Positions 25,571 through 50,077 of a stretch of DNA of 64,000 nt are shown piece by piece. Within the stretch, counting starts at the first letter, position 1, and every line of letters begins with the position of its first letter. The DNA is from Schmidtea polychroa (Eukaryota): NCBI GenBank assembly GCA_044892525.1, contig CM097885.1, forward strand, positions 16,804,001 through 16,868,000. The letters run 5' to 3'. A program made the position numbers and the translations under genes. The notes below the pieces were generated by a model. The model was not told the DNA's origin, did no database searches, and worked only from the letters and a program-made list of their open reading frames with translations.

Positions 25571-25571
<1 letters not shown>
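24835..25571 (+). repeat. Left TIR of Polinton A; the right TIR survives as pieces ~35578-35846, 50030-50077 and 56303-56671
   Basis: Each piece is the reverse complement of consecutive parts of the left TIR. Confidence 0.92.
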
Positions 25572-25655
<84 letters not shown>

Positions 25656-26634: not shown

Positions 26635-26705
26635 TCTAAAAAATGAATTCTAAACAAAAAAACAGTTTGTTTAAATCAATCAATAACCAATTAGAAATTA
26701 ACCGA

Positions 26706-27142: not shown

Positions 27143-27243
27143 TATTAAATCATTTATAAAAATTAGTCTTTATATACAAATTGAGCACGAGTTCATTAAA
27201 TCATCGTATATAAACAAATACACATATATTTATAAAATTTGAA

Positions 27244-27870: not shown

Positions 27871-27888
27871 AAACCTCTATGAATAATA

Positions 27889-28422: not shown

Positions 28423-28425
28423 ACA

Positions 28426-28614
28426 ATGGGTGCTAATCCTTCATTGCCCGACATTAAATTTAATTTTAAATCTTCTTGTTGTAATGGAGAAGATTTGGAC
28501 GAACCCAGAAGACGAAGCCGGTTTCGGTGGAGTGGAAAAATTAAAGAAAAGAGTTCCGAATTCGAAAATAAGAAACCCAGAAGTGGTTATCAGATCAGCT
28601 TGCGTACAGTTTGA
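28426..28614 (+). CDS. Small putatively acylated protein overlapping the integrase start
   Basis: MGANPS (MGxxxS myristoylation consensus) plus SSCC; starts just after the previous stop. Confidence 0.45.
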   Translation: MGANPSLPDIKFNFKSSCCNGEDLDEPRRRSRFRWSGKIKEKSSEFENKKPRSGYQISLRTV

Positions 28615-28871
28615 ACAAACCAATGCGGAAAAGATTTCCAACAAGAGCATATAAAACATTTGGTATTGACGATTTATGGCAAATGGATTTGATGGAGATG
28701 ATACCGTATTCGAAAATTAACAATGAGAATAAATATATTTTAACATGTATTAATGTATTCAGCAGGTTTGCAAGAGCAATACCAGTCAAGGCAAAATCTG
28801 CAGATGAAATGTCCAAGGCAATTAATATTTTATTTACAGATGGACATCCTAATAACTTGAAACAGATTTAG

Positions 28872-28957
<86 letters not shown>

Positions 28958-29590
28958 TTAGGTAAAGAATTCTACAATAGCAAAGTTAAGCAAATCTTCA
29001 ATAAACTGAAAATAAATCACTACTCGGTACATTCTCAATACAAAGCTGCCCATGTTGAAAGATTTAATCGAACATTGAGAGATAGATTAAAGAAATGGTT
29101 CGTGCATCAAAGTAATAAAAAATGGGTAAATGTTTTACAGAAAATAAAAACAAGTTATAATCATTCATCACATCGAGGACTGAATGGATTGAGACCGGTT
29201 GATATTACATCACAAACATCATTGTCTTCTAAAAAATCTGTAAAAATTGCAAAACCTAAATATAAAGTCGGTGACCATGTTAGAATTAGTAAAATTAGTG
29301 CATCACCATTTATTAAAAATTTTGATACAAATTGGAGTGATGAAGTCTTTGTAATTTCAAAAATAAATAATAAACAGAATCCTGTAATATATGTCATCAA
29401 AGATAATGATAATAATATTGTACAAGGGAAATTTTATGAGCAGGAATTACAAGTCATTCCTCCCCCAAAAGTATTTAGAATTCAAAAAATATTGAAAACT
29501 AAAAAGGTCGGCAAGGATAAACAATACTATGTCAAATGGCATGGTTATCAAAACCCGTCATGGATATCAGCAAAAGACCTAGTAAAGCGA
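28484..29590 (+). pseudogene. Polinton A rve integrase with C-terminal chromodomain; frameshifts; 90-nt intron-like insert 28872-28961
   Basis: AGFGGVEKL, DDLWQMDL, TDLG|KEFYN, KAAHVERFNRTL, YKVGDHVRI, GKFYEQELQ, IQKILK...YYVKWHGY..PSWI. Confidence 0.93.
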
Positions 29591-30578
29591 ATTTTTATAC
29601 TATTTTACCGAGCAATAGTTGCCCATTAATTCATCCAGACAATCAAGCAAGCAAATTCATCATCGAACTCCAAAACTCCATCTATTTGGATAATGACTGG
29701 GAAGTTGCACTGTTGGATTTTACATTTGTATACAATTTATTCCCAATCTATAGCAAATCAGTTATTGAATGTAATAAGAAAGTAGCAGTAACGGAATAGG
29801 TTAAAACTTAACGAGTTCATCGAAATCAAGGAAACCCATAATTTATGATGATGGTCAATATTTATACGTGAATTGCTTGAATAAGCCATTCGAAATTTTA
29901 TTTTCTACAATGGTTGATGCTAAACGTTTTGGATTTACTGATTTACGTAATGTATTTCATGATACAGTCAAAATAAATCTCGCTACACTTCCAAAAACTA
30001 ATAATTTAGTGGAATTCAAATTTAAGCTATCATACTTTGAAATAACAGAGCATGCATATACTTTTAAAGATAATTTATATATTACAGAACTCGAACAATT
30101 ACAAACTTATTTAGCTGACAATTGTAGCGAGATTTTAACAGTTTTCGAGCTTCAAAAAGATAAAGTATTTAGATTTAGTATAAATTCTAATCTTAGTCAA
30201 GTTAAATTTGACTCAAATTTGACAAAAATATTAGGATTGTCTAAACCGATAAGTACACAAAATGAACAAATTTGTGAAGGAACAAACAAACCGAAAATCC
30301 TTAAACATCATCAGCAAATGTTCATTTACAGTAATATTGTGGAACCAGTTATTGTTGGCGATTCTAGTGTTCCTTTAATGAAATCTATATGGATTGAAAA
30401 ACATGATCATGATGAAGTTGTACAAATCAATGTAGAAAATCCCATGTATTTACCTGTTTCAACATCTTGTATAAACAATATAGAAATAAATATAAGAGAT
30501 GATTCTGGTCAATTAATCGAATTTCCAAAAGGTTCAAAATCTCATTTGACATTACATTTTCGTAAAATAAATGGCTAA
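29587..30578 (+). pseudogene. Polinton A minor capsid (penton-like) protein, disrupted
   Basis: N-terminal FYTILPSNS...PDNQASKF.I.L...I.L...WEVAL; C-terminal MFIYSNIVEPVIVGDS.VPLM...PMYLPV...IEINIRDDSGQLIEF...LTLHFR. Confidence 0.85.
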
Positions 30579-30843
30579 TTCTGGTATTATGAGTATGTAT
30601 AATGGTAGCCAATCTGGTGGTAAATTACCATATTTTATTGGTAAATAGTACGGATCAGGATGGTTGAGAACAATTGATAGATTTGCCCTGCCTCTTCTTA
30701 AACGTATTGGCAGTTTTGGTATGAAAACTGCAAAAGATGTTATTATGAATGAACAGAAAATATTACCATCTCTAAAATCAAATGCTTTAGCTGAATTAGG
30801 GAAAGTTGTAAAAATATTATGTTATTATGACGAAATTATGTAA
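30571..30843 (+). pseudogene. Polinton A small Gly-rich/amphipathic virion protein, truncated
   Basis: QSGGKLPYFIGK*YGSGWLRTIDRFALPLLKRIG resembles the conserved small ORF that follows the penton in many Polintons. Confidence 0.6.
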
Positions 30844-30919
30844 ATGTTTAAAAAGTGATTAAGAAACTACAGCTTTAAAATATTCCATGTAGTTTGCAAT
30901 GAACATCTACATTAGTTAA

Positions 30920-31013
<94 letters not shown>

Positions 31014-31266
31014 CTTTGTCCTATTTAATGTATTCTCTCTTAAATATTGAATTATAACCTAATTTCTACAAGTATTTATCATCATTTGTTATTATTAATG
31101 ATAACAAATGATGATAAAGACCTATGCAATATAGATGCAACATGTTTGCATTATACAAAACTTTATAATTTATATACAAATACTTTAATAATATTATTTA
31201 TCAGGTCGACTTTATCCCAATTATTGTCAATCGGCAATTGGGCATAGTGACGAATGTCATTGTGAC

Positions 31267-34200
31267 ATGAAGAAATATTATAGAAAAATCTTTAACGGCA
31301 TCAACTTTTTTATATGCCCCAAATGCATAATTAGCGAAAAAATAAAATATAATGCATTTTTTAATAAACACCGTAATCACTTAGGGCAATTTTCGAGACC
31401 AAAAAATGAACTATTTCGAAAAATAAATAAAAAAATAAATAAAAATTTACAAAAAAATATAAAAAGATTCTATTAAAAATATTATTAAAAAAGATTCTAT
31501 TAAAAAAGATATTATTATTAAAAAAGATGTTAAAATCACAAAAAGACCTGATGATTTAATTAAAAATATTGTTCCGAATAAATTATCGCGACCAGAAGTG
31601 ATAGTCATCAGCAAAGATGAATGTGTAGCTTCAACATCGTTAAAACCGCAATAATTTACACGACATTCATGTACACAACAAGAAGTGATAGTCATCAGTG
31701 ATAATGAACGTGTAGCTTCAACTTCTTCCAACATAAATCAAATAGTTGGCTGTTTATTCGAACCTATCATGGAATCCGATTTGAATGGAACACGAAAAAC
31801 CATAAAATTTGATATAAGAAATGAAAATTTAATTTATATAGGCTTAACCTCTAAAATAGAGCAAAAACTACGAACTGAAATCGAAAAGATGGGTAAGGTA
31901 AAAATACAGTTCGCAATTTTAATAAAATTTGAAAAAGATGGGAAGATCCGGGATAATTATTTTTCGAACAACGCACAAGTTTTTACCGATAATTTTATAA
32001 ATGAGGGGGTGAGCAAATTAAATGAAAAAATTGAACAATTCACTTTGTTTAGGAAGCGGGTGGCGTGTAATTAATATATTTGAAATCGATTTTATTTTAA
32101 CAAAATTCGCACCCGTTAGTAGATTATCCGGACATAGTTATATAAAAACCCCATCAGCATTAAAATTAAAACACGCAATAATTAACGTAAAAAACAACAA
32201 CCATAAGTGCTGCTTATATAGCATTCTAGCACTTTTAAAAAGAGAAGAAATAGGTCGTAATCATCAAAGAGCCGCCAAATATTACGAATTTTTAAATCTA
32301 TTAAATTATGATGAAGACACAGATTGTCAATGAGACTGTGTAACATTCCCAAATTTGAGAGGAAAAATCCTGACTTAAACTTGTCCATAAACGTTCTGTC
32401 TTATAATCCAGCCAGTTCTGATTCTGATATTTCTGAGGATTATGTAGCTCACCGCCCTCATCTTAATATTATTCATCGTTCTAAGGTTATCGATGGTAGG
32501 CCGATTTATTTATTACTTTTGAGTAATAAAGATAAATATCACTATACGGCCGTTACAGACTTGGACAAGTTAATGAATTGTCATTTAAATGAAAATGTAA
32601 ATGTTCAAATAAGGTGTAACTGGTGCCCACATTGTCTTAATGGGTTTAGATATAAGAATGCTTTTGATCAGCATGTTGCTCTATGCTGTAAGAATCAGAC
32701 TGGCACAACACTCTACACACTTCCTAAAAATAAAGATTTATTATTTACAGATTACGCAAAAACCGTTATACCTCCCTTCGTAATTTATGCCGATTTTGAA
32801 TCGGTTTTACCTCAACATGAAACACATCATCAAATACATTTACCTATCTCAGCAGGTCTTTTACTTATAAATAATTATACTAATACTAAATTTTATTTTT
32901 TTGGACCGAATTGTGTTTTGGATTTTTTAAGGAAAGTGGAGGAAATTGCTGTCACAATTTTCCTGCCATATTATGAACTCGAAAGTCATAAAGGCATGTC
33001 TACTTTGTCTTTTGCTCAGGAGCGTGCCTTTCGATCTAGTACTATTTGTTATTTATGTAAGAAAGATATTATTAGTCCTGTAAGAAATCATTGCCATTTT
33101 ACTGGCAGATATGTCGGAGCGGCATGTAGGAGATGCAATGTCTCTCGCAGGATTAATAAGTTATTTCCCGTTGTATTTCATAATTTAAGAGGCTATGATT
33201 TACATCATATTTTAAAACATGGCTTCAGTGATTTTCCCCTTTGGGAATTAAATATTATACCTACCTCTACAGAGAAATTTATTTCTTTAATTGCTTATAT
33301 TAACAAATTGCCTGTTCGTTTTATTGACAGCATGCAATTTGTTAATTGTTCTTTAGCTAAAGCTGTGAAAACTCTTACTACTTTTCCTTTAACTTCGTCT
33401 GTCTTTCAAGGGTCAATGATTCATTCTAAAGGTGTCTTTCCGTACGATTTTGCTACTTCTTTGGATGTTCTTGAATCGACTTTGGAATTACCTCCTATTT
33501 GGTCTGATATTACGGAAGATCAGTACACTGAGGCTCTACTAATTTGGAGTCAGCATAACTTTAATAATTTGTTAGATTATATGCTAATCTACCTAAAATT
33601 AGACATATACCTCCTCGCAGACTATTTTCAGCAATTCCGCGGTAAGGCAATTGCTTACAATGGTCTGGATCCACTTAATTTTTATGGGATTCCCGGTATG
33701 TCATGGGCCTCAGCGCTTATGACATTAACGGAACCTATAGAACTTTTGCAGGACATGGAAATGTACAATTTCTATGAGGGAGGTATCCGGGGTGGGTTAA
33801 CATTTGTTAACAAACATTACACGGCTACTTCAGATGACACAGATTTATTGTACATAGATATAAATAATCTGTATGGTTGGGCTCTTAGCCAAAATCTTCC
33901 GTATGGTTATTTTTCTTGGGTGAATGATAATTTGAATGATGTTTTGCTTGAATGTATGAACACGGATATTGATAACCTTCCATATGGGTACACTATGGAG
34001 GTTGATATCGATATTCCGGAATGTGTGCATGATTTTTTGAATGATTTTCCGCTTGCGCCGGAAAAGTTGTGCCCACCTAATTCAAAGGTTGAGAAGCTTA
34101 TGCTTACGCATTGGCCAAAGAGGAACTATGTTCTTCATTGGAGGCTTCTCAAATTGTATATAGAATTAGGTAAATATTCATAGATGTATAAAATTTAAAC

Positions 34201-35133
34201 AAGGACCTATATTTAAATCGTATATAGACACTAATACGACTTTAAGATCACAGTCTACTAGTGAAATATATAGGGACTTGTTTAAATTATATAATAATAG
34301 CCTGTACGGTAAATCCGTTGAGAATCTCAAAAAACCTATGAATTTGAGGTTGTGTAATTCATCCAAAAAGATGATAATATACTCCTCAAAGCCGACTTTC
34401 AGAAAGTCTATAAGAATCGATGGCGATCTGATAGCCGCACATTTGGAGGACTCAATTTGTTTAGATAGACCTAGCTACATTGGTCAAACAGTACTAGATC
34501 TATCTAAACTGCGGATGTACTAGCTCCAATATATTGATTTGGAGAAGTCAATTCAATTGCATAATAAATATTATAGCCGGTGATACCGATAGTTTCTTTC
34601 TTGAGAATAAAAATTAAAAATTATCAACTTTATTAACTCAGATGATCTCAGATAATTTATTGGATACATCTAATTATGATCCAACACACCCCTTGTATAA
34701 TAGGAACCTTGACTCTGTCATCGGGAAGTTTAAAGATGAGAGCAAGGGATTAGGTTACTCTGAATGGGTTTTCTTACGCCCTAAATGTTATAGTCTTTTA
34801 GGTAGTAAGGAAACAGTGAAAGCAAAGGGGGTAAATTACCTGGGACATCAATAAATCATGAATCTTATTTAAATTGCTTTAATAATAATCAGGTGATTTC
34901 TGTACCACAGACTAGAATAGGTACTAGAAATCACCAACTTTTCACATTTAAAAACTCGAAAAATTGCCCTAAGTAATAACGATGATAAGCGCGCATGGCT
35001 AGGAAAAAACAAAAGTTATGCATTTGGGTTTTATTTAGGAGTTGATGACCTTAGCGAGTATGATGATGAGGAATTCGGTCCAGCTCCAAGTCTCAGTTTC
35101 GATGATAGTTCGTGGGACGAAGATGAAATGTGA
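31267..35133 (+). pseudogene. Polinton A protein-primed DNA polymerase B with an endonuclease-VII-like Zn insert; multiple frameshifts and stops
   Basis: IYADFES, CYLC...NHCHFTGRYVGAACRRCN, FHNLRGYD, FIDS, KGVFPY, YIDINNLYG, KLYNNSLYGK, GDTDS, GKFKDE, LRPKCYS, DDKR. Confidence 0.95.
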
Positions 35134-35364
35134 AATGAACAATTTGTATAAAAACTTATATTTTGAATTATAAAAAAATTTGTATATATATTTAATTTAT
35201 AAAAAGTTGTATATATTGAATTTATAAGAAGTTGTAAATATATTGAATAAAAATTTCTAAAAATTTCTAAAAATATTGCTTTCTATTTTTTTTATATAGT
35301 TTAAAGTTTTTTAGTTTAATAGTGTTTTTATATAGTCTGCAGTATATATCTGATAGAACTTTTA

Positions 35365-35413
<49 letters not shown>

Positions 35414-35458
35414 TAAAAATATTAATAATAATATCAATAATAATATTAATGAAACTTT

Positions 35459-35491
<33 letters not shown>

Positions 35492-36147
35492 GTAATAATA
35501 ATAATATAATAATAATATTAATAATAATAATATCAATAATAATATTATTGAAACTTTGTAATAATAATAATAATGATGAGATAATTGGCTCATTCGAAAG
35601 GTCTTGGATTGGGCTTTAAAATGAGCTATCGTTGAATAATTTTCGTTGGCGGAAACTCTGTAAATTGAAATTTTAAAATATGACCTTGAAAAAAAATTTG
35701 ACCTTAAAAAAATTTGTCCTTGAAAAAAATGACCTTGAAAAAATTATATTTTTAAAAATAATAATAAAATAGTCAAATGACCTTTAAAATGGTCTCGCGA
35801 AAATGTTAATAACTTTGCCAATATTAATGATGGTGATGATCACTATAGTAGTGGATGTATGGCCTTCGCGGACCCAACCCACCCTAGCCCCCAATGTCAA
35901 ACCCCTTCACATTCAGCCTAAAAAACTAAACTTTTTCATCTTTTAACCCCCTATTTCTACATCTTTTAGTCATAAAACCCTCAAATACACCAATCCAAAA
36001 CCTCACAGATCCAAGCGATCGAAGGGGGAAACATGAAATGGGTCAGCCTCCGTGAAGGCCATACATCCACTACTATAAAAACATAAAAATTTTAAATACT
36101 AGCAAATTGCGCAGTTTGCATACCCAATAAAAAATTTTTTTAAAAAA

Positions 36148-39100
36148 ATGAATATTATCAATTTTCAAATTTTGAATATGTATAATTGTAACATGTGTAA
36201 TAAAAGATTTAAAAATAGAACAGCACTAATATCACATGAAAAATCTAAAGAGCATTTATTAAAGACGGTTGGACTAAATGATTCAAACTCAAAACTTTGT
36301 CCTAAATGTAAACAAAGATATTTACTTTTAGGATATGATAAACATTTTAAAAACTGTAGTGGGATTAAAAGAAATAGAAAAAAATTTGAATGCCCTATAT
36401 GTAGATCAAAATTCACCACAGAATCTTATTATTTAAAACATTTAAAAGAATGTGCTATTGTTAAAAGAGATCCTGAAGACCTTGAAGAAGAAGATATAAA
36501 AGTTAGAGAAGAAGAAAAAGAATATGAAGAAGAAGAGATTGAAAAAGAAAAAAATAATTGGGACAACTTTAACCATGTAGATAAATTTGAACAAACATTT
36601 ATATCCTCTTCATCTTTAGAGTATATAAATAAAAATAAAAAAAACATAAAAAAATCAATGGAAGATGCTATAAAAAAATTTGGTAAATCAAGATTTAATA
36701 TTATTAAATATAAAATTAGAATCCATTCAAGATATTGGAGAGGAGAAGATATAAACACAACACTCTTGGATGCTATAATTGAAACATCTTATGATTATTT
36801 ATTCTCAACCGATGGATTTAATAAAAAAATCAAAGAGATTATTCATAAAGTTGCAGATGAGCATAGAGTGGTTGAACAAGAATTAGGAGAGTCAAACCTA
36901 AAATTCCTTTCATTTCAATCACTTGAAATTGAATATTGGAGAGGAGCACCTCCAAATCCTAAATCATATATCCCTACTCCCTTTACTTCTATTCACATAA
37001 TAAATATTCGAAATAAGGATAATAAATGTTTCCAATGGTCAATCCTTGCACACTTACATCCTCAAGAAAATCATAAAGAAAGACCTGCAAAATATAAGCA
37101 ATATGAAAATGAATTAATATATCCAAAAGGATTTAAACACCCGATGAAGATTGAATACATTCCAATTTTTGAAAAATTAAATAATATTAAACTTAGCATT
37201 TATGAATACATTTGCCAGGTGGGTGATAGGAAACATATTATTCCTATCCATGTTTCAGATAGAGAATTATCAGAACAAGATAGAAATAGAGAAATATATC
37301 TTTTAATATTACAAGAACATAAAAGAGAACAAGTCTATAAGGAATATGATGATCTGGATGAGGAAGAACAATATTTAAATATTGAAGATGATCAAGAAGA
37401 AGACCTTGAAGAGGAAGATGAGGGGAAACAACATTATATTCTAATAAAAAACTTTAAAAGCTTTATGAGATCGAAAAATCACCACAGTGGTGGAACAACA
37501 TGTAAACGGTGTTTATATTATTCAGCTTCAGACATTGCAGAATTTAAACATGAAAGATTATGTTGTAAGAACTTGCCAGCATTAATTAAAATGCCGAGTA
37601 AGGAAAAATCTAACATGCATTTTAAAAACTTTTCAAACCTATTAGAAACAATAGGAGTAATATATGGAGACTTTGAGGCAATTAACATAAAACAGGATTT
37701 AGACCAAGAATATTTAAAAATAATAGAAAAAAATAATTTATTAGACTCTTGGAACCAAAGGACTGAAGGGATCTCCATGAAAAACTTTTTAAAATTAAAT
37801 AATAAATCATACACCATAAAACTAACAAAACAGGTAGCATCAACATATAAATTATTTTTTAAAAGTAATTACCCAGACCTCATAGAATCTGAAGAATTTT
37901 CATTTAGAGGATCCTCAGAAGAAGAAACTCTAAATCATTTTACTAAAGACATAAATGATTTAGAACATAAAATTTTTAAAACTTTAAAAACAAACTTTCC
38001 AATAAATTTTCAGAACAACAATGGGAAGAATATGAAAATTGCACAACTTGCTGGATGTGCAAACGGCTATTTGAGGATCAACTCTTTGAGAATCCTGAAG
38101 GTCTTCCCGAGTCTATTGAAGAAGAAGAACAAAGATTATTTCATCAACAACAAACTCAAAACATAAAAGTTCCTGATCATGACCACTTTAAAAAAGAAAA
38201 TAATTATAGAGGAGCAGCCCATAAGAATTGTAATATAAATTGTAAAAGACCTGCATTTGTACCAGTTATATTTCACAATCTTTTTGGTTATGACATCCAC
38301 CTATTTATAAAATGTCTAGCTGTAAATGCTAAAAATTCCTTTAAAGTCATAGGTTTGACAAAAGAAAAATATAAATGTGTTCAATATGGACGACTAAAAT
38401 TTATAGATTCATTAAACTTTCTATCAATGTCCTTGGATGGAATAGCAAAAACTATGAAACCTGAAGACTTCACCCACACAATTGAAAAAGTATTAGTAAA
38501 AAATAATATTCCCCAGGAGGAATATAAAACCTGTTTGGCAAAAGGAATCTATCCTTATGATTACATCAACTCATTTGATTGTTATAATGAAACATCTTTA
38601 CCCCCTCAAGACTTGTTTTTTTCAATATTAAATCAAACGGATATAAGCGATCAAGAATATGCCCGAGGGAATAAAATGTGGGAACTTTTCAAATGTAAAA
38701 ACATTGGGGATTATACTGACATGTATTTATCCCTTGATGTTTATATCCTTGCAGATTGTTTCGAGGGATTCACAAAAGCCTTTACTCTTAAACCTTATAA
38801 TTATATAACATCTCCATCTTTAGCTTGGGATATATCATTATATACAATGTGGGCCTCTGGAACAGAGTCCATAGAACTATTAACTGAAATCGACATGTTT
38901 AATGTACTTAAAGAAAATATTCGTGGAGGTGTTAGCTCCGTGATGGGAGATAGAAATATAACTGCAAACAACTTTATATCTCTATACAAGAAATTCTTTA
39001 GTGAATATCCTGAAGCAAATGCTATAGAAATAAAAACCGATGAGGATTTAAATTTCATAATGGAAGGTTTAAATAATCCATCAGAGATTATGTATATAGA

Positions 39101-40616
39101 TGCAACAGCTTTATATTCAGGAATAATGACTCAATACCTTCCAATTGATAACTTCATTCAGGTGGATATCCCCACGGAGGCTGATCTCCTAAGAAAACTT
39201 ATGAATGAAATATTATCAACTGAAAAAGATTCAGAAGTGGGATATATAATAGAATGTGATTTAGAATATCCTAATGATATAAAATATGTAACTAGATACT
39301 TTCCATTTGCGCCAGTGAAAAGAAAAGTAGATTCTAATGAATTATCACCCCAACAAGATAGACCTACAACTGTAAAACTTTTATGTGATCAAACTGATAA
39401 AACTTGGTATCTTTGTCATTATAGATTATTACAATTTTATCTTTCACATGGAATGAAAATAAAAAATATACATTCTATAATAAAGTTTAGACAACTTCCA
39501 TTCATGAAAACCTTTATAGAGGGAAATATTAAATCTAGGAATGAAGCAAAAAGAAATGGAAACGCTTTCCTTGATATGATTTATAAACTTTTAAATAATT
39601 CAGTCTTTGGAAAGACAATGGAAAATGTTGACAAATATACTCGTGTAGAATTATTGACAAATAGTTCAAAGGATTTTGCAAGGTATAATCGAATGCTTTC
39701 AAAACCTACATTTAAAAATGCAGAAGTATTCTCAGAGAACCTTGTAGCCGTTGAACTAAAAAATAGTGAAAAGACTTATAACAAACCAATCTTTATAGGC
39801 TTTACCATTTTAGAATTATCAAAACTTCAAATGTATGAAACCTATTATGATATTCTACTACCACATTTTAAAAATAGAATATCTATGCATGCATTGGATA
39901 CCGACAGTATGTTTTTAAAAATATATACTAAAAACCTAAAAGAGGAAATATCTGAAAATGAAATCCTAAGGAATTAAATAAATTCATCAGGAGAATTATT
40001 CACCTTTAAAGATGAAAAGCCAAATACAGCAATAATTGATGCTGTCTTTATTAGATCTAAACAATATTCACTAGAAATGATTGAAGCCCCAAAGATTGAA
40101 ACCCATTCAATTAAAATCATGGATCAAACATTTGATATACCAGTATTAATACCTTCAAAACTTAAAACATCTAAAGATAATAAAAATAAAGGTATACAGA
40201 AATCAGTTTCTAGAACTATACCCCATCAAGACTATAAGGATATTCTAAATAAAAATCAACCAGATAAAATAGTTGAGGTTCATCAACTTAAATCTGAAAA
40301 GCATAACATGTATTTATAAGAATCAAATAAAATATCATTATCTAATTATGATGATAAGAGGTATATTTTATCAGATTTAAAAAAGACACTTCCAATTGGA
40401 AATGATATGATTCCTCATATAAAAAATTTAAAGAACATTTCAGATCTTCAACTGTATGAACTTCGAATACTTTACCCTGAAAGCCGAAATAACTATTTGG
40501 AATTACATCTTGAACAAAATCCTATAAACCTAAATGATTACATCTTAGACGTTAAAACCATATCATCTTCAGTCATCAATGAAGGAAAGTCTCTGGAAGT
40601 CATTCTGAAAGCTTAA
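36148..40616 (+). pseudogene. Polinton B pPolB with three N-terminal zinc fingers and an endo-VII-like insert; frameshift ~38010, stops at 39975 and 40317
   Basis: CNMC..H..H and CPKC/CPIC fingers; IYGDFEA, DHDH...YRGAAHKNCN, FHNLFGYD, KGIYPY, YIDATALYS, KLLNNSVFGKTMEN, LDTDS, FKDE, YDDKR. Confidence 0.95.
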
Positions 40617-41044
40617 AAATGACTGAAATACCCTTAAAATCCATTTTTGAAAACTTAAAGTCTTTAACAGATGACAAAGTATTGATTGATATTATTAAAG
40701 CTTTGAATAAATTAAAAAACAAACCATCTGTTTCAATAATAAAAATTTTTTCTTTTATAGTTATAACATCTTTTTTATTTTCTCTTTTATTTTCTTTTGG
40801 TTTACCTTGGCTAAAGTCTTTCTGGCTTTAATCTCTTTATGGACTTCGTTCAACTGTTGTTTTAGATGATCTCTTTCAATCTCGATATCATTTATAATCC
40901 AAAGTAATACAGGCTCTCGAATGGCAAGTTGCACAGTGAGCAAGGCTTTATCCTCTGAAGATTTCTCATTATATTCTTTTAATGCAAGACTTGATTGCTT
41001 TTTAATAATAGGATTACTTTTTATCAAATTTAAAACACGTTCAT

Positions 41045-41491
41045 TCATTTATTAAAGCTTTTAAACATGATACTAGTTCGATCTAAAATATCTTCAACAT
41101 CTTCAGGTTCAGTTGTAGAGACTCCTGTTCCAGAGGCTAAAGGATCTTTTCTTTGACCTTCGGACCTTTTATATTTCTTAGACTTGATGCATTTATGATT
41201 TTGTTGAAGTACATTAGTTGAACAATCATTACAATAAACACCCTTTTTCTCTATAACCCTCTTCTTTTTATTTGCATGCCTATAAGGAGAATCAATTCCT
41301 AAATCTTTTCTAATTCTTCTCATTGTAGAATCTGAAGTACCAATCATTTTACAAATTTGAGTTTGAGAAAAAGTAGGGTTTTCACTCTTTATTCTAGCAA
41401 ATTCAAAAGCCTTCTCTTTTTGTTGAATCTTATTTAATATTAAAGGATCAATTATTGAAAGTTGTTCAATTTTTTTTATAAAGCCATCCAT
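41045..41491 (-). CDS. Polinton B small helix-turn-helix protein
   Basis: SQTQICKMIGTSDSTMRRIRKDLG HTH-like pattern plus a CxxC..H.C cluster; part of a tightly overlapping run of minus-strand ORFs (40761-41702). Confidence 0.55.
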   Translation of the reverse strand: MDGFIKKIEQLSIIDPLILNKIQQKEKAFEFARIKSENPTFSQTQICKMIGTSDSTMRRIRKDLGIDSPYRHANKKKRVIEKKGVYCNDCSTNVLQQNHKCIKSKKYKRSEGQRKDPLASGTGVSTTEPEDVEDILDRTSIMFKSFNK

Positions 41492-41738
41492 TTATTAGTT
41501 GAGGAAATAAAGCAAAATAATATTCTCCTTTTCCAATTTGGTCTTGTATACTTAAAGATTTAAAGTCATTTATTTTATTTAAATAATCAGGGTCATTAAT
41601 TCCTACAAGATAAAATATATAACACTTTTCACCTATTCTAATTTTATCCTCTAATGATAAACTTCTAAAATCATTCAATCTAGATTTCATTATTTCTTCC
41701 ATTTTTTAAATTAAAAATTATACAGGTCTTACGAAGTC

Positions 41739-42287
41739 TTACGTCGAAGTCTTTAACCATTTCTCTTGTTGTATTTTTTTAGAATATTCATCACCTTTAA
41801 CCTTTGTAGTTTTCAACTTTATAACTTCATTTTTAATATCCCTTATTATTTGATTTGATTTCATTATTTCTTCATCTGTTAGGATTCCATCTTCCAAGGC
41901 TTTTAATTGAAATAAAAATAATTTTGATATCCCCAAGTCGATTGTCAAACAAACTTCACGATATAAACTTTTCTTTTTTGAAGTATAAGATAAAGAAAGT
42001 ATTTCAGTCAAGAAAGAATCTGCAACAGAAATACTTCCAAGTATTACGGGTGCAAGAGTAACAACTGGTAAAGTTATAGGTAAAACAATTGTAAGTATTG
42101 CAGATGAAAATCATAAGGAGTAACCTATAATCTTTAAAGCTGTATTCCCTTTATTCCATCTTTTTTTAATTTTTTTATAATGCTTCAGTAAGTCTTGTAA
42201 ATGTAAAGTTTCTGATTTAAATTCTTTCACTCTCATGACTTCAAGTTCTGTAGGAGCTGATGGAATCTTTGGATATCTTGTTTCCAT
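41739..42287 (-). pseudogene. Polinton B membrane protein with a central hydrophobic hairpin; one internal stop (42111-42113)
   Basis: METRYPKIPSAPTE...ALKIIGYSL*FSSAILTIVLPITLPVVTLAPVILGSISVA...KALEDGILTDEEI read in one frame. Confidence 0.65.
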
Positions 42288-42295
42288 TTTAATAA

Positions 42296-43144
42296 TTAAA
42301 AAAATAAGACTTTATTATTTGGTACCAACGCTCGCATATCATAAGAAACTCTTTTTGAGAGAATGTCTTTATACAATTCTATCAACGCTTTACGAACTTC
42401 ATCAACATCAACCTTTTTTTCATAAAATATTAAATCTATATATTGTACAAGTGTGCTTTTAAAAATAATATTCTTACTTTTAACTTTATGTGTTTTATGT
42501 GAATCAGTTTTGTCATGCCAATGTCCATGTGGTAAATCATAACCAGTTATTATAACGTCATTCTTTTCAAACTTACTATTATAATCACATTTTACAAACC
42601 ATTTCATTGTTTCACCATCATCATTAAATAAAAAGAAATAAGGATCAATAATCTTTACAACCATAAAACAAGACCATTCTTTACTATTTGTAATTATTAA
42701 AGTTGGTTCTATAAAATGTTTATATCTATTGGGTAATAATGTATTATTCTGTTCTAATTCAGCAGCTCTTTTTCTAATAGTGTGTGTTGTGTTAATGTGT
42801 GTTGTATGAGACTCTAATTTAACAAGTCTTACATTAAATGATGTAATCATCTCATTTATTATATTATATATTGTATTAATTTTATTATCCATAAGTTGTT
42901 TATTAAGCTTGGATTCTATAGAATTACTCGATTTAGGAAACTTAAGCTTTTCATCTACATATTTTTTATTAGCTGCATCAAAATCATTAATTGGAGAAGA
43001 TAATTCTTTTATCTTGTGTCCATTTAAACTTAAATCACCCTTCATTGAATCTCCTTTTTCATTAACAAATCTTTTTTCTGTAAGAGCTATAACATCTTCA
43101 TCTTTTAATCCATCATTATATAATCCTAATTTATTATAATTCAT
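42296..43144 (-). CDS. Putative fibre/spike-like protein of Polinton B
   Basis: Intact 282 aa; GDSMKGDLSLNGHKIKELSSP..DFDAANKKYVD motif typical of trimeric fibre/adhesin shafts, then coiled coil and a beta-rich head; directly downstream of the penton. Confidence 0.6.
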   Translation of the reverse strand: MNYNKLGLYNDGLKDEDVIALTEKRFVNEKGDSMKGDLSLNGHKIKELSSPINDFDAANKKYVDEKLKFPKSSNSIESKLNKQLMDNKINTIYNIINEMITSFNVRLVKLESHTTHINTTHTIRKRAAELEQNNTLLPNRYKHFIEPTLIITNSKEWSCFMVVKIIDPYFFLFNDDGETMKWFVKCDYNSKFEKNDVIITGYDLPHGHWHDKTDSHKTHKVKSKNIIFKSTLVQYIDLIFYEKKVDVDEVRKALIELYKDILSKRVSYDMRALVPNNKVLFF

Positions 43145-43146
43145 TT

Positions 43147-43899
43147 TTATAGTAATAATCTAACTTGTTTCAAATGTAAACACAATGAAATCTTTTCTCC
43201 ATTAAAATTAATCAATTTCCCATTTTCATCAACAATTTTAAAACTAATACTCATCAAGTTTTTTCTACATAAAGGTAAATAGTTTGGAGGATTCATTCTT
43301 TCAACCATTTTATATCCAACTCGAACATTAGAAGGAAAGGAATATAAAATATTTGCATGTTTACCATTATTATATGAACCCGTTATACAATCACACTCTA
43401 TATTTATAGAATTTGTATTTGTTATTTGAATAATATTTTTAGATTTAATAGGTGACTCACCACTATTATATTTTTTAACTTCAAAACCTAAAATAGTATG
43501 AAAGAAACTAGAAGCTTCAATATTAAGTCCAATATTTTTTTTTAAAGTCATAATATATTTTGAAGTTGGAAAATCTACTTTTATTTCTATATTTCCATTT
43601 GTTTCTTTTAAAATTGTTTTAGCTAAATCCATTAATTCATATGCTCCTGGTTCAATTGTTGTACCCGTGTATACACCAAAGCCCTCCTCCTCATTATCTT
43701 GCTTCTTATATACAGTAAAGTTATTATTATTATTATTTATATTAAAAATAGTATTAAAACAGCTAAACCACAAGAGTGCTAATTCATAATTTAAATTTTG
43801 ATCTAAATTTATTGAATCTTCAAAATTTATAGTAAAATCTGATTCATTTGAATTTACTAATAAACTTCTTGAATATTTATCTGACATTATGTTTACCAT
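43147..43899 (-). CDS. Polinton B minor capsid (penton-like) protein
   Basis: IEPGAYEL, INIECDCITGSYNNG...ILYSF, YLPL...ISFKIVDENGKLINFNGEKISLCLHLK. Confidence 0.85.
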   Translation of the reverse strand: MVNIMSDKYSRSLLVNSNESDFTINFEDSINLDQNLNYELALLWFSCFNTIFNINNNNNNFTVYKKQDNEEEGFGVYTGTTIEPGAYELMDLAKTILKETNGNIEIKVDFPTSKYIMTLKKNIGLNIEASSFFHTILGFEVKKYNSGESPIKSKNIIQITNTNSINIECDCITGSYNNGKHANILYSFPSNVRVGYKMVERMNPPNYLPLCRKNLMSISFKIVDENGKLINFNGEKISLCLHLKQVRLLL

Positions 43900-43921
43900 T
43901 TTTTAAAATTATCTTCCATTT

Positions 43922-44311
43922 TTATAATAGAGGTTTTAGATCATTATAAATTTCTTGGATTATAGATTCAAAGCCCTCTCCTTTGGACACATTCAATCTA
44001 TACAAAACATATAAACTTAAAATACCACATATTTTAGTATTATTAGGTTGAACTTGTAAAGAATTAAAGGTGTAGCCTTTTTCAAGATAGTCTTCTACTT
44101 CTTTATTAGGTTTAATCCCAAAAGAATCAAAGTATATAGATTTATTATATATACAAACCCAATGAGATCCTTTTTCATTTGAATCTTGATAATTGATTAT
44201 TATATTATCCTTTAGTCCTTTCAGACTTGACAATTCATCATTCATTAATATTTTAATTTTTAAATTTAAATAATCTGCATAATCTTTTAAATCAAAATTT
44301 GTTTTTTACAT
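43922..44311 (-). pseudogene. Adenain-like cysteine maturation protease (stop at codon 2; downstream 107 aa open)
   Basis: IINYQD...GSHWVC, YFDSFG, QVQ...ICG catalytic H-D-Q-C pattern. Confidence 0.9.
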
Positions 44312-44352
44312 TTATTCCAAATGTTTTTAAAAAATCTAATATCTTCGGAGGA

Positions 44353-45168
44353 CTAGTCATTTGTATATTTATTAAATTTATCTTTTGAAATTATTCCTTG
44401 TTTAAATAAATCTTTTGAAATCTTTAAAATATCAGAATTTAAATTATTATGTCCTGCTTTTTTAGCAGCTAATAGTTTTCTCAATTCTATAAACTTAGAG
44501 ATTGGATCTATCCCCTCACCCTCTTTAACAATATAACCCCTTTCATTTTTATTTAAATAATTCTTTAAATCTTGAATATGTTTTGCTTTTGGACTACCTC
44601 TTATTAATTTTATAAAATTTAAATATTTTTCAATTTCTTTAATATCATCTGAAGGATATCCACAAATTAATCTATAAAAATCATCTGTAAATTCAAAGTC
44701 TAAATATTCATAATTATAAACATTTTGTGAATGAATATGTGATTTATTTTCTGGAGTTATATATAAAGTAAAGTTTTGTTTATTAATTGTTATAATTTGA
44801 TATCCTTCAGGATTAATATTAAATATAGGTTTAATTGTTTCACTTAAACCCTCTCTAATTTTAGGATCAACTTTAAGAGGTTTTGTTTTTAAAAACATTT
44901 CTTCTTCTTCTACACTTGAGAGTTTTCTACGTTTTCTTTGATTCCTTTAAGTTGGTCCTTCTATGGCTTTAATACTTGGATTCTCTATAGTTTTAGGCTT
45001 TATGGCTTCTATAGCTTTAATTATTGGTTGTTGTTGTTGTGTCATTTCTTCATTTGCTGTTATAGATTCACTATGTTGGGTTATATCTTTTATATCATAC
45101 TTGTCTTGTTCTGATTGTAATTTTTTTAAAAGTGCTAATCTTTCTTCATATACCATTTTATATACCAT
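44353..45168 (-). pseudogene. Polinton B uncharacterised protein (in-frame stop at 44947)
   Basis: Two track ORFs lie in the same frame; C-terminal LRKLLAAKKAGHNN...I...L...GII resembles a recurrent Polinton motif. Confidence 0.55.
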
Positions 45169-45172
45169 CAAT

Positions 45173-45730
45173 TTACCATTCTTCTTCTTCTTCTTCAGAT
45201 TCTGATTCAACAAGTTGTAAATATAAACCTTTACCATTTTTAAGTTTACAAAGGCATCCTTTCTTCAAAGATTTACACATTTTTTTAAAATCATCTTTAT
45301 CTTTTGATGATAAAGATTCAGATGTTGAAATTTGATTTTTTAAAAAATCATTTAAACCTCTGCCTTTATATGGATCAAGATAGAGACCTTTGCCCTGATA
45401 TGGATTGAGATAGAGACCTTTTCCTTTAGCTTGCCCTACCTTCATTTTCTCGATTTCAGTTTGTAGTTTTTCTTTTTCAAGGTCTGTCTTTTGAGATTCT
45501 TTAGCTTTTTGAACTGTAGTTGCAATTCCTCCAGCTATTCCAGCAGCACCTGATAAAGCAGCAATGATTGCAGGTATTAAAGCAGCTAATGGAAGAATGC
45601 CACCTTCTCTAATACGTTCTTTAACTTGTTCTTTTACATGTTTTCCAATAAAATATTTTTTACCATCAATTACTACTGATTTATTTTTATTTGAATTTAT
45701 TAATTCTTGTAAAGATTCTTCAGTTGTCAT
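45173..45730 (-). CDS. pX-like core/membrane-active precursor
   Basis: REGGILPLAALIPAIIAALSGAAGIAG resembles the adenovirus pX tail; repeated GKGLYL motifs. Confidence 0.7.
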   Translation of the reverse strand: MTTEESLQELINSNKNKSVVIDGKKYFIGKHVKEQVKERIREGGILPLAALIPAIIAALSGAAGIAGGIATTVQKAKESQKTDLEKEKLQTEIEKMKVGQAKGKGLYLNPYQGKGLYLDPYKGRGLNDFLKNQISTSESLSSKDKDDFKKMCKSLKKGCLCKLKNGKGLYLQLVESESEEEEEEW

Positions 45731-45746
45731 TTTATAATAAATAAAA

Positions 45747-46505
45747 ATGGATATTTGGAAACCAATTTTAAATCGACACAAGAGTAAATTTAATAATAAA
45801 TTATTTCCTGATAATTTTAGATTATTAATCGTTGGGTCTTCAGGATGTGGTAAGAATGTACTTCTTTTGAGAATATTACTAGAAGAAGGTTTTTTAGATT
45901 ATAATAATTTAATCTTTTATTCTACAACCATAAATCAACCAGAGTTACAACTTTTGAAATGTGGATTTGAAAATAAATTAACTAAAAAAGTTATAATTGA
46001 TATTTTTAAAAATCAACATAGATGTCCTGACGAGGTTTTTCAACCTTGTGATATGATTGATTGGTATAAGGAAAAGATTTTAGAATCAGATATTGATAAT
46101 AAAAGTGATTACATTTCTGAAAATGAACCTGAAGATGTTTTACATTGTGATTTACTTCCTAAAGATGTAAAGAATCTAGTTATATTTGATGATGTTGTCA
46201 ATATGAAAAACCAAGAGATTCAAAAGAGTTACTTTACACGAGGTCGACATAATAATTGTAATGTTATTTATATATCTCAAACCTATTATGCTTTGGATAA
46301 AAACTCTATAAGAAATAATTCTAATTGTTTTATATTTTTTAAATTAGAAAAGCGTGATAAGAATATGATTTATAGTGATTTATTTTCAAATGTTGAACCT
46401 GATAAGCAAATGTTTGATATGTTTGTTGATAATCATTGGAAAGAAAAATATAATTATATTTATTTGGATAGAGAAGAAACTGAAATATGGAAATGTTTAT
46501 TTTAG
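45747..46505 (+). CDS. Polinton B packaging ATPase
   Basis: GSSGCGKN Walker A variant, LVIFDD, FTRGRHNNCNVIYISQTY, SIRNN. Confidence 0.92.
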   Translation: MDIWKPILNRHKSKFNNKLFPDNFRLLIVGSSGCGKNVLLLRILLEEGFLDYNNLIFYSTTINQPELQLLKCGFENKLTKKVIIDIFKNQHRCPDEVFQPCDMIDWYKEKILESDIDNKSDYISENEPEDVLHCDLLPKDVKNLVIFDDVVNMKNQEIQKSYFTRGRHNNCNVIYISQTYYALDKNSIRNNSNCFIFFKLEKRDKNMIYSDLFSNVEPDKQMFDMFVDNHWKEKYNYIYLDREETEIWKCLF

Positions 46506-46516
46506 AGCTTGTCGAC

Positions 46517-47867
46517 TTAGAAATCTGTTTTCTGTAGTTCATTATTATAAAATCTACCTAATATTTTTTCATTATTTAAATCAATGATGCTATATGTTAT
46601 TGGAATTGTATAATGTATTTTATTTATAATAAAAATTTCATTTGTCCATTTTGCTGTGAATCCTTTTTCAAATTTATTTTTATATTTAAATATTCTTACT
46701 CGGTCACCAATTTTAAACTTTGGTTTTTCATTTACCACTTTAACGGTTTCAGGATTTATAAGTTTTAAAGGATTCAAGGAAGCATTTAAAGGTGTTGATT
46801 TTATAGAACTATGTACATCATTATTATATTCATTTACAATCTTTTGTAACAATTCATTGTTCCATTTTTGTTTTCCAATAGCAGTAAAATATTTCCACAT
46901 TTTATTTTTTAATGTTCTATTTAATCTTTCAACTACGACTGCTTTTCCTTCGTTTTCTGTTGAATATAATTTAATATCATTTTCATTTAAAAACTTTGTT
47001 ATAAAATTCTGTTCTTTTATCACACCATAAATATTTTGGAATTCTTTGATGTTCTTCAAATATATTTTCAAATGCTTCTGTAATTGAATATCCTGTTTTG
47101 CTTTCTAAACATCTTGCAAAAGCAAATCTTGTATATAAATCTATTACTGTTAAAATTATTTTATATTTTTCAGGGTCTGATGATTTTGTTGGCATAAAGA
47201 CTAAATCTGCAGACCATGTTTGATCTTTTTCATGTACTTGAACTTTTAAATATTTTTTATTTTTTCTAAATTCATAGTGAAATTCGTTGGCATATTTTAT
47301 TTGTGATTCTGTTGGGAATAATAAACTAGTCTTGGATGCACTCTCGAGTTGATTCTCAATCTCTGCTTGTTGAATAATCTTTTTATTAGCAACATCTTTT
47401 GCTATTCTAGGGTGTCCGGCTCCAAAGAAGATCTTACCTTTCATTGCTAATTTAACTAGAGCTCTTTGAATCTTTTCTTGGGTTGATGGGTTTTGAATAC
47501 TATTTAAATCATGTATTAAATTAACATCTGCAAGATGTCTATCCCTAAGGTCTTGAGAATAATAAGCAATATCATGTTTTAAAGCTGCTTGATCAATTCT
47601 ATTCACTGGTTCTTCTCCGGGTTTGGGATTATTATTTTCATCAAGTCTAATATCTAGACGTGTTCCTGGTCCAGTATAGTTGTGATGGAATAAATGTCTT
47701 TCACTTGGATATTTTTCAGTAGTAAAGGGTTTTAATATTGAAGATGTTTTTTTGAAGATTGTAGGTCACCACCAACTCGAGATGTATGTTTTTTTAGTTT
47801 TAACATGACTTGCTTTATGATGTTTTCTAACTTGACAATTACAAATTTCACATTTCCAATAAGACAT
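46517..47867 (-). pseudogene. Zn finger - parvovirus-type PLA2 - rve integrase gene; disrupted near 47766 and ~46990
   Basis: CEICNC...H...; NYTGPGT...PVNRIDQAALKHDIAY; WSADL, VIDLYTRFA, LWCDKRTEFYN; KAVVVERLNRTLK; FKIGDRVRI; GRFYNNELQ; no chromodomain. Confidence 0.9.
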
Positions 47868-47883
47868 TTTTAAAAGTTAAAAA

Positions 47884-49155
47884 CTATGAATCGCCTCGTA
47901 CATTTTCAATTATTGAAATCTTTCCACCATATAATTTCATTTCTATTTTCTTTTCTTCTAATATTAATGTATATATTTTTGCCTTAAAATTAGAATCCTT
48001 TGTTATATGAAGAGTAACATCAACATTATTTATAGCTAGACGATCATCTTGATCTGATACATTTATACAAAATATAGAATATAAATTTTTGAAATCTTCT
48101 AAACTTAATTGTGGTTCAACTTTAAAATCATAACATGTTTCAATATAATTTAGATATGGAAATATGTTTTCATTATTTTCAATATTAAATTCCATTCTAT
48201 TTATTGGATAATAAGAACTATTTAATTGAATTTGTATTGATTTTAAATTATCATCTCCAATCTTTTGAATAAACAAGTTGTTATTTTTTTGGAAAGATGA
48301 ATCTACTTCTTTGAATCCAATAAAGATATATCTCGGTCGGTATGCTAAATTTGCTACCTTTATAGAATATGTTGAACCCTCTGTCATACTAAATTCACTA
48401 CAGACTCTATTTAAATAATTTACATTTATAGATTTGTTGGAATTTAATCTTTTAAGGAGTTTGATTTCAGATTGAGGATTTTAAGTCCATTCAGGTATAT
48501 GTAATTCAAGTGTTGATAATTTTAATTTAGCTTTTGTATCCTTGTCTCCATAGAACAATCTTTTATCACCTTCTATTCTATTACAGGTTAATTCTATAAA
48601 AACATTATGAAGTATACGGTTATAGTTTTGAAGGAATCCAAATAAGTGTTTTAATTCAAAATAACCTTCAAATTTTTTAGATTTATAAAGTTCAACTCTT
48701 TTATAGTATCCAAAATTTACATCTAAACCATCTTTATCTAAATCCCCTTCATTAACATCAGGAATCCAACCTGTTAATTCACCATATTCATTTTTATAAT
48801 CACAACCAGTTAAAATAAAATTTAACATTGTAGAATATACTCCTGGATGTAAAACAGTTTCAATTTCTGATGATCCTAGTTTTAATCTCATGTTGGAGAA
48901 TAAATTTGGAAAGAAATTATTTTCTAGGGTTATATCTTTGTTTGCTTCAATTTCTAATTCAATTTTATAATATAATTTAGCATTACAAATATCTATTGGG
49001 TTTGATGTTTGAAGAGATTGAAAAACTATATCAGCCCTACGATTTAAGTTTGCGATAGATCCCGAGGTTGGAGAGATTTTTAAAACATCAATTTTTTTAA
49101 TTTCATGCATAAATTCTTTATTATAATCAAGATTTAATTTATTTTTATTAGCCAT
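47884..49155 (-). pseudogene. Polinton B major capsid protein (double jelly roll), frameshift ~48480
   Basis: ~420 codons; LENNFFPNLFSNMRLKLGSSEIE, LKHLFGF..Y.RIL, RPRYIFIGF, IQIQLNSSYYP, FKNLYSIFCINVS. Confidence 0.8.
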
Positions 49156-49259
49156 TTTTTATATTACTAAATTAGAAATTGCGCAGCTTGCTAGTTTTTA
49201 AGATTTAAAATTTTTAGAATTTTATAAATATAAAATTTTAAAAAATGACAAAAATCCGA

Positions 49260-49341
49260 ACCCTAATAGCGCAGTGGGAATAGACTGGCACAGTGGTTCA
49301 AATGGATAGTGGTTCAAATCCCAACTGACATTATTTTTTTT
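49260..49341 (+). ncRNA. Candidate Pol III small RNA 1 (not a foldable tRNA)
   Basis: A boxes TAGCGCAGTGG (49267) and TGGCACAGTGG (49286), B box GGTTCAAATCCC (49311), T8 terminator 49334-49341. Confidence 0.55.
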
Positions 49342-49412
49342 CAACATAAAATAATATTAAAAATTTGAAAATAATTTTGAAAATAGTGTGTGAAAAAAAA
49401 AATTATTGAAAC

Positions 49413-49506
49413 GGGTATGGTGGCGAACCGGTAATTATCGCCACCAGTCTTTCGAACACACCCCGGATCGATCCCATAATGTGCACATTTATTTCTCAGT
49501 TGTTTT
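49413..49506 (+). ncRNA. Candidate Pol III small RNA 2
   Basis: A-box-like TGGCGAACCGG (49421), B-box-like GGATCGATCCC (49465), 9-bp stem TGGTGGCGA/TCGCCACCA. Confidence 0.35.
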
Positions 49507-50077
49507 CGGACCTCTTTCGGATTCGCTTTCGAATTCATTTGTACTTTCGAGCAGCACGCTTAAAACCGAGAAGCGAATAATAAGGTGTGCTGCTATTATC
49601 AAATTGATTCTGATGTATGAGTCTGGCCAGCTTGTATATTGGAAGAGATTTGATAAACGAAAGAGGTTGAAATTGATCCGGATCAAAAAAACTGTTGAGA
49701 GGACATTGAAAAAAAAAAAACAAATACCACTGTCCCCTCAGAGCAGTTTTACTATTTCATAAATTTTTTTATTCTTCAAGGCATCAAGATTAAGATTTAA
49801 AATTTTTATAGTTTTTTATAGTAGTGGACGTAACGGACGTAACCTTTTTCCGCGGTTCCCTGTCAAGGGGATGGGGGGATTACAGATTTGGGTTGGTAAA
49901 TTAGGGGTTTTTATGAATAAAAGATGTAAAAATAAAGGGTTAAAAAGATGAAAAGGTTTAAAATTTATTAGGTTTTGAGACGGGCGTCCGAGGGTGGGTT
50001 GGGTCCGTGAAGGCCATACTACTCACTATAGCTCATTTGAAAGGCCTTGCACTAAACTTTAAAATAAGTTATCGATC

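Follow-up and report, generated by a model that had tools for sequence, protein, structure and literature searches.

Retroviral integrases are made as the C-terminal part of a structural precursor, Gag-Pol, from which a protease releases them, and their dose is set by a -1 frameshift, for which slippery heptamers follow the rule X XXY YYZ. Among animal DNA elements, a parvovirus-type phospholipase A2 (PLA2) has been proposed as a membrane-active virion protein under the names PLA2X in Alpha adintoviruses (Starrett et al., 2021; PMC8502044) and CAP in Spodoptera Mavericks (Geisler, 2018; PMC5803895), and lipases have been proposed to be packaged in Polintons (PMC4642659). Here, we describe a decayed gene in a Polinton/Maverick of Schmidtea polychroa, located in a 64,000-nucleotide (nt) stretch of assembly GCA_044892525.1 (contig CM097885.1, positions 16,804,001 to 16,868,000 of the forward strand; hereafter the window), in which a PLA2 is joined to an rve-type integrase. 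In the PLA2X and CAP systems, a pX-like domain accompanies the PLA2 in one protein and the integrase has a gene of its own, whereas the window element has the PLA2 joined to the integrase and a separate pX-like gene (45,173-45,898), so that the hallmark of PLA2X, a PLA2 with a C-terminal pX-like domain, is absent.

This architecture has already been seen and labelled, and its frameshift counterpart is apparently unreported. Two records among 59 mentions of PLA2 in supplementary file 2 of Buck et al. (2024; PMC11071296), Adinto15303 and Adinto6405, are labelled 'PLA2-Integrase', and like the window family they have PLA2 and rve in frame, with GG before and GxG after the PLA2. In the accessible text of this preprint the labels are given without discussion, 'PLA2' is missing from the main text, and an analysis of the breadth, cut sites or frameshift of the fusion was likewise not found. 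In its record Adinto13074, the annotation gives a PLA2X and, after it, a separate integrase whose start lies past the first catalytic Asp, an arrangement that looks like an unrecognised split junction of the kind described below. The same source proposes -1 slips via slippery sequences for the penton and hexon-adenain genes of adintoviruses, which are other genes of the same virus group; its accessible parts say nothing of the PLA2-to-integrase junction. The supplement also contains 'PLA2X-Adenain' labels, and its accessible part gives 0 matches to 'Adenain-Integrase'. The PLA2-integrase fusion is not discussed in the accessible text of PMC8502044, PMC5803895, PMC3671162, PMC4642659, 10.64898/2026.06.19.733378, PMC11161782, PMC11071296, 10.1101/2023.08.22.554363, PMC11296320, PMC4246237, PMC11131425 or PMC7805220. 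Neither a PLA2-to-integrase frameshift, nor protease-integrase fusions, nor a conserved GG/GxG bracketing of the PLA2 was found in the literature searched, to the extent that its text was accessible, with subscription journals and Repbase reports not included; the partly readable supplements of PMC8502044 and PMC11071296 may mention the frameshift.

The PLA2-integrase gene in the window and its relatives

As the initial annotation had read it, the PLA2 motifs run without a stop into the integrase core up to CDKRTEFYN. A single - strand frame (47,765-46,986; 260 amino acids) holds the YTGPG calcium loop (47,678-47,664), the HD pair (47,576-47,571), the Asp downstream of it (47,528-47,526), the G-A-G (47,423-47,415) and the first two catalytic Asp of the integrase (47,207 and 47,021), and closes just past CDKRTEFYN. 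Both Pfam domains are recognised, PF08398 above the Pfam cut-off (E 2.9e-9) and rve slightly under it (E 3.8e-7) because the domain is truncated in this copy. Two breaks interrupt the gene: a stop at 47,768-47,766 between zinc finger and PLA2, and a frame change near 47,000 between the two halves of the integrase, whose catalytic Glu (46,930) lies in a different frame spanning 47,104-46,517. The finger starts with a Met at 47,867, its 33-residue piece gave no match in a Pfam search, and its last His and a V-G-G site (47,776-47,768) lie in another frame between two A-runs. A single polypeptide of finger, PLA2 and integrase, as first proposed, is therefore not encoded by the window copy and is found in its relatives P0001 (463 residues) and P0251 (470 residues), natural proteins with all three domains open that match the two window pieces at 82-83% and 90% identity. 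In public runs, contigs from other copies vary in length at the places of the breaks and differ at the capsid stop too (the difference at 46,987 is seen in one contig of one run, and no other-copy piece covers the whole gene), so the breaks are mostly specific to the window copy or its assembly. The segment 46,400-48,600 matched 19,968 contig pieces from one run, which indicates a high-copy family. The window copy itself is dead and ordinary; it is of interest through its family.

A search for longer relatives of the window gene returned 14 matches, 7 of them with both domains and P0001 the best. When P0001 was used as query, both Pfam domains were present in 106 of the 120 best matches (of 1,122), and our own profiles in place of Pfam raised this to 116 of 120; at 50% identity, both domains occurred in 32 of the 150 best clusters. 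On the DNA level, 8 loci have PLA2 and integrase in frame. This search for the combined architecture, which the initial annotation had suggested, confirms that the fusion is open in intact relatives and is no artefact of decay. Among 114 of the 120 proteins, retained for having the HD..Y motif, the aligned PLA2 His, Asp, Tyr and Asp are present in 114/114 and the integrase D, D and E in 114, 114 and 113; both enzymes look selected because these active-site residues are conserved across the fused proteins. The zinc finger is optional and varies in kind: 12 of the 114 have a C2H2 finger and 15 a C4 ribbon, some entries being N-terminally truncated. The rve domain of P0001 scores E 6.5e-12 in Pfam. 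A quickly built tree of 102 integrase rows (2 rows omitted, 2 under half filled) places P0001 in a group of 21 rows with 98% support, all of them in-frame fusions; the only row labelled otherwise, L036, is a fusion interrupted by a contig end. Stand-alone integrases make up 34 rows, and integrases linked to a PLA2 or a protease recur in several parts of the tree. We consider it nearly certain that the fusion is real and selected.

Structure prediction was in keeping with separate PLA2 and integrase folds. The P0001 model has a predicted local distance difference test score (pLDDT) of 84.6 and a predicted template modelling score (pTM) of 0.54, which fits separate domains, and the PLA2 part alone was modelled at pLDDT 83.9. 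The best viral fold matches of the PLA2 are VP1 proteins of densoviruses and parvoviruses; its top PDB fold match, a rice PLA2, is weak to middling (Z 7.6, root-mean-square deviation 3.7, 96 aligned residues), and a PDB sequence search with this part gave a best match of only E 0.35. The integrase best matches that of a MELD virus among viral folds (E 1.3e-22) and lies nearest to foamy-virus and other retroviral integrases. Both glycine sites fall in low-confidence loops of the P0001 model, the linker site at residues 153-155, which counts in favour of their being protease sites.

Further searches added little. P0001 as sole query against viral contigs found no relative; two DNA patterns for the integrase start gave 0 and 1 viral matches (the one already known) and 0 in genome contigs; and loci L138-L148 held no new intact pair, only one duplicate and one fused fragment. 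Gene models of Lottia gigantea (P0008-P0014) attach the PLA2 to unrelated regions, and one of them, P0009, retains the first integrase residues, which suggests gene-model splicing over decayed copies. Related PLA2 genes also lie on 3.3-kb viral contigs and within long open reading frames of other viral contigs that lack Polinton markers (L115-L121, L123, L124; L125-L132), though L128 has a polymerase. Polinton contigs in bacterial or archaeal genome bins (L133-L138, L140) are probably misbinned.

Split relatives with the integrase in the -1 frame

Loci L001-L137, after removal of 5 duplicates, yielded 44 rows with a PLA2-integrase pair, of which 19 partial or broken ones were dropped and 25 retained. 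The integrase is in the -1 frame in 15 of these intact pairs, in frame in 8 and in the +1 frame in 2, a bias toward -1 among the split pairs (15 vs 2; binomial p 0.002). An A-run of at least six lies within 45 nt past the PLA2 in 17/17 split loci vs 0/8 fused ones, and an in-frame X XXY YYZ heptamer lies in the overlap in 12/15 of the -1 loci vs 0/8 fused ones; the corresponding backgrounds per 45-nt window are 3.7% and 5.1%, the latter for the heptamer. No AUG stands ahead of the first catalytic Asp in 13/15 of the -1 loci. A hairpin of 11-12 bp follows 5-8 nt downstream in 5/15 (z -2.9 to -4.1), and in an alignment of four loci (3 distinct) all 12 pairs are kept, with 2 double changes. The other marker genes of the -1 loci are unbroken across 54 A/T runs of at least six, counted over unbroken stretches only. 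An intron at the junction was rejected, as the distance from the PLA2 end to the start of the integrase profile is 36-78 nt in 14/15 and largely conserved coding sequence.

The product expected without a slip is abundant in the databases: a length-limited search for short finger-PLA2 proteins returned 1,434 matches, in clusters of up to 350 members. Among the 107 with the motif in the best 120 of these, 102 carry K-K or K-N within 8 residues of the GxG, vs 12 of 113 fused proteins, and they end a median of 8 residues after it. Slip forms occur in at least three places of the integrase tree, with some in-frame forms among them. Together, these patterns make it probable that the split relatives use a programmed slip. 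At the window's own junction, a slippery site sought by eye amounted to a non-canonical A5 run only.

Several observations weigh against a programmed slip. The hairpin pairing was also reached in 122/500 shuffles and rests on only 3 distinct sequences; a strong hairpin is missing in 10/15 of the loci, and 8 of those, which belong to the larger clade, share no consensus structure. L002 has its frame shift downstream of its A-runs, L059 appears concatenated, and L134 is nearly the same as L135; the 15 loci thus amount to about 12 independent cases. Within the slip clades there are in-frame poly-Lys forms of the junction (P0115-P0126, a cluster of 134), and loss of one base in an A-run would also yield a -1 frame.

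At L068:1395-3007, a hairpin of 11 bp accompanies the -1 junction; the integrase beyond it keeps the YY..P-type N-terminal region and falls among stand-alone integrases in the tree, which may point to an independent origin. In addition, among 8 distinct split loci of another kind, 7 have the protease gene in the -1 frame overlapping PLA2X, several with long A-runs (-1 in L004, L006, L010, L016, L092, L109 and L136; +1 in L009; fused in L005 and L007), and since several such proteases have their own Met, a slip is not needed for these pairs.

Glycine sites and competing explanations

Adenovirus protease cuts two classes of site, (M/I/L)XGG/X and (M/I/L)XGX/G (PMC4246237). The G-A-G and V-G-G sites pointed out in the initial annotation proved to be the conserved ones in the 114-protein alignment. 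The PLA2 ends in K-x-x-x-G in 114/114 fused proteins, and this linker Gly is continued as GxG in 90, GG in 10, both in 4 and neither in 10, so that a second Gly stands at +1 or +2 in 104/114, equivalent to an adenovirus-type Gly at P2 with Gly at P1 or P1'. The either-or use of GG and GxG is non-random (Fisher p 2e-6, on related rows). Ahead of the PLA2 domain, GG or GxG occurs 14-40 residues upstream in 70/77, vs 7/981 windows inside the integrase. Protease and integrase also share one open reading frame in L011:2740-4248, L052:274-1803, L056:128-1471, L080:1787-3145 and L083:535-1899 and in P0348 and P0375. All seven of these fusions (5 loci, 2 clusters) have GG or GxG just ahead of the integrase, which supports the site independently of the PLA2 helix. 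Another integrase extension, in P0334, resembles a diverged protease by eye.

Cleavage at these sites would be questioned by three features. At P4 the linker site has Lys in 66, Ala in 12, Arg in 11 and Leu in 7 of 114, with a hydrophobic residue at P3; because P4 is mostly Lys, the adenovirus consensus is only half met, although the M/I/L rule is that of adenovirus and may not be that of the Polinton protease. KxxxGxG also closes stand-alone PLA2 proteins (101/109), and since these end likewise it may be an inherited helix-end motif. Finally, the linker can be as short as 6 residues. With these points included, we find it fairly likely that the precursor is cut at the glycine sites.

The fusion, with both active sites intact in the relatives and glycine sites on its flanks, occurs in an element that also carries a predicted protease gene and capsid genes. 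We moderately favour the reading that the window gene derives by decay from a conserved, packaged virion precursor of the form [metal finger]-GG-[PLA2]-GxG-[integrase]. The precursor would be made late and packed into the particle via its PLA2/finger part, as proposed for Polinton lipases, and the protease of the element would cut it at the glycine sites; the PLA2 would then breach the endosome, and the freed integrase would arrive along with the genome, so that integration would need no new gene expression. For packaging, cleavage and the coupling of entry to integration, which the initial annotation had suggested, the support is indirect. In the window lineage, PLA2 and integrase would be made 1:1, while in other lineages the short finger-PLA2 would be the main product, with integrase added only by a -1 slip on the A-rich heptamer, which would lower its dose in a gag-pol-like manner. 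Packaging of the integrase lies just on the probable side. Insect-type elements encode a stand-alone integrase with its own Met, which speaks against packaging as a general rule and means that it is not universal or is achieved otherwise.

Three alternatives concern the genes themselves. That the PLA2-integrase frame of the window arose by decay of two separate genes would agree with a copy that is broken elsewhere, yet it is highly improbable, given a frame open in more than 100 distinct natural proteins and the well-supported P0001 group of 21 in-frame fusions. Sequencing errors in homopolymers, or decay of an in-frame fusion, could account for the split relatives in that a one-base loss gives -1, that the 19 dropped, degraded rows show 0, +1 and -1, and that in-frame poly-Lys versions occur; against this stand the unbroken marker genes across 54 runs, the 1,434 short proteins in clusters of up to 350 and the lack of an A-run in the fused loci (0/8), and we hold this explanation to be quite unlikely. 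Transcriptional slippage on runs of A6-A8, or mechanisms that differ by clade, would fit the presence of A6 or longer in all 17 split loci, the 10/15 without a strong hairpin and the 2 intact loci in +1; the 15:2 bias toward -1, the in-frame heptamers in 12/15 and the canonically spaced hairpin seen in two distinct clades speak against it, and leave slippage in transcription rather unlikely.

Two others concern the protein, and we regard each as unlikely. The fusion might stay uncut as a bifunctional protein whose PLA2 tethers the integrase to capsid or membranes, with the glycine motifs as flexible helix ends; the P4 mismatch with the adenovirus consensus, the same motif at the end of stand-alone PLA2, the second Gly missing in 10/114 and the linkers of down to 6 residues would suit this. 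Against it, the either-or pattern of GG and GxG fits both site classes of adenain, the motif also precedes the integrase in protease-integrase fusions, and it is almost missing inside the integrase (7/981 windows). The link might, to a similarly small degree of probability, be one of expression economy, in which a single transcript is made, the integrase works unpackaged in the infected cell and the PLA2 may serve exit. Many Polintons do keep a separate integrase gene (the 34 stand-alone rows of the tree), and packaging of the Polinton lipase is itself an analogy in the accessible literature (PMC4642659), but the upstream partners of the integrase, PLA2 and protease, are predicted virion proteins, and linkage to one or the other turns up at several places in the tree.

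The surrounding element and implications

The element of about 14.2 kb, bounded by inverted repeats (35,847-50,027), is Polinton/adintovirus-like and lies in an AT-rich, microsatellite-rich eukaryotic genome. It has the features that mark Polintons, namely polymerase B, rve integrase, capsid and ATPase (PF21738, PF04665) and terminal repeats (Table 1).

Table 1. Features of the S. polychroa element, in window coordinates
Feature	Position	Strand	Basis
Left terminal inverted repeat, begins AGTAGT	35847..36074	+	identity to right end
Protein-primed DNA polymerase B gene, in pieces	36103..40319	+	PF03175 E 1.7e-14; open reading frame list
Probable minor capsid (penton) gene	43147..43902	-	similarly placed homologues in related elements
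Adenain-like cysteine protease (predicted)	43922..44305	-	His, Asp, Gln, Cys motif residues in sequence
pX-like core protein gene, separate, without PLA2	45173..45898	-	Adeno_PX E 5.7e-4, below cut-off
A32-like packaging ATPase	45741..46505	+	PF04665 E 4.5e-10
Integrase C-half, different frame, without chromodomain	46517..47000	-	90% identity to P0001 residues 299-463
Integrase N-half, same frame as PLA2	46986..47290	-	rve match and alignment
G-A-G closing PLA2, candidate protease site	47415..47423	-	conserved in fused proteins
Parvovirus-VP1-type PLA2 domain: calcium loop, HD pair, downstream Asp	47451..47699	-	PF08398
Broken stretch flanked by two A-runs	47750..47790	-	in-frame stop 47,768-47,766
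N-terminal C2H2-type zinc finger, apart from PLA2 in window copy	47790..47867	-	translation; P0001 N-terminus match
Double-jelly-roll major capsid gene, stop at 48,483-48,481	47884..49158	-	PF21738 E 9e-13, 2.4e-9
Right terminal inverted repeat	49820..50027	-	identity to left end

The pX-like gene contains six GG/GxG sites. The predicted protease gave no match in a Pfam search for Peptidase_C5; it matches syntenic genes at many related loci, one of which scores Peptidase_C5 E 0.0079. The probable penton gene had no match in a Pfam search. Adintoviruses as defined in PMC11071296 have an integrase with a C-terminal chromodomain, an OTU-like domain in PolB, and PolB and hexon of the Alpha or Beta clade. 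Such a chromodomain was found by Pfam in neither the P0001 integrase nor the window piece; P0100 is one of the fused relatives that have it.

Polinton terminal inverted repeats start with AGT, and the elements are flanked by a 6-bp target-site duplication. The two repeats here are inverted and 74% identical over 146 nt; flanks inspected by eye showed no matching duplication, and the left end adjoins another element. Inverted sequence of about 21 nt delimits the left repeat, with a weaker counterpart at the right one, which would allow each end of the element to fold back. The adjoining element is a second, different Polinton (window 25,300-35,850; inverted ends 25,333-25,665 and 35,477-35,848) with ATPase, pX-like, minor capsid and polymerase genes and a chromodomain integrase interrupted by an ATT microsatellite; PLA2 was not detected in it.

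The likeness of the precursor to Gag-Pol lies in the proposed layout, in which packaging is inferred, and in an integrase fold near those of retroviruses. The system differs in belonging to a DNA virus with a jelly-roll capsid, a cysteine protease and a PLA2 or protease as carrier, and in having no reverse transcriptase. We tentatively propose, at slightly less than an even chance, that Polintons have repeatedly evolved a gag-pol-like logic, in which particles receive the integrase as a tail cleavable from a virion protein (the PLA2 or the maturation protease) and whole lineages regulate its amount through a programmed -1 frameshift, misread by gene callers as a truncated integrase. If this is true, many annotated Polinton integrases would lack their first catalytic residue only through a missed slip. 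The matter bears on the route by which a Polinton integrase gets to the incoming genome and on whether particles are formed by animal Polintons; an integrase made in one precursor with an entry enzyme or with the protease predicts packaging and names candidate cut sites, and the candidate -1 junction is a cassette of 60 bases. The fusion is a real and widespread variant of Polinton gene organisation, and its apparent frameshift counterpart makes packaging of the integrase directly testable.
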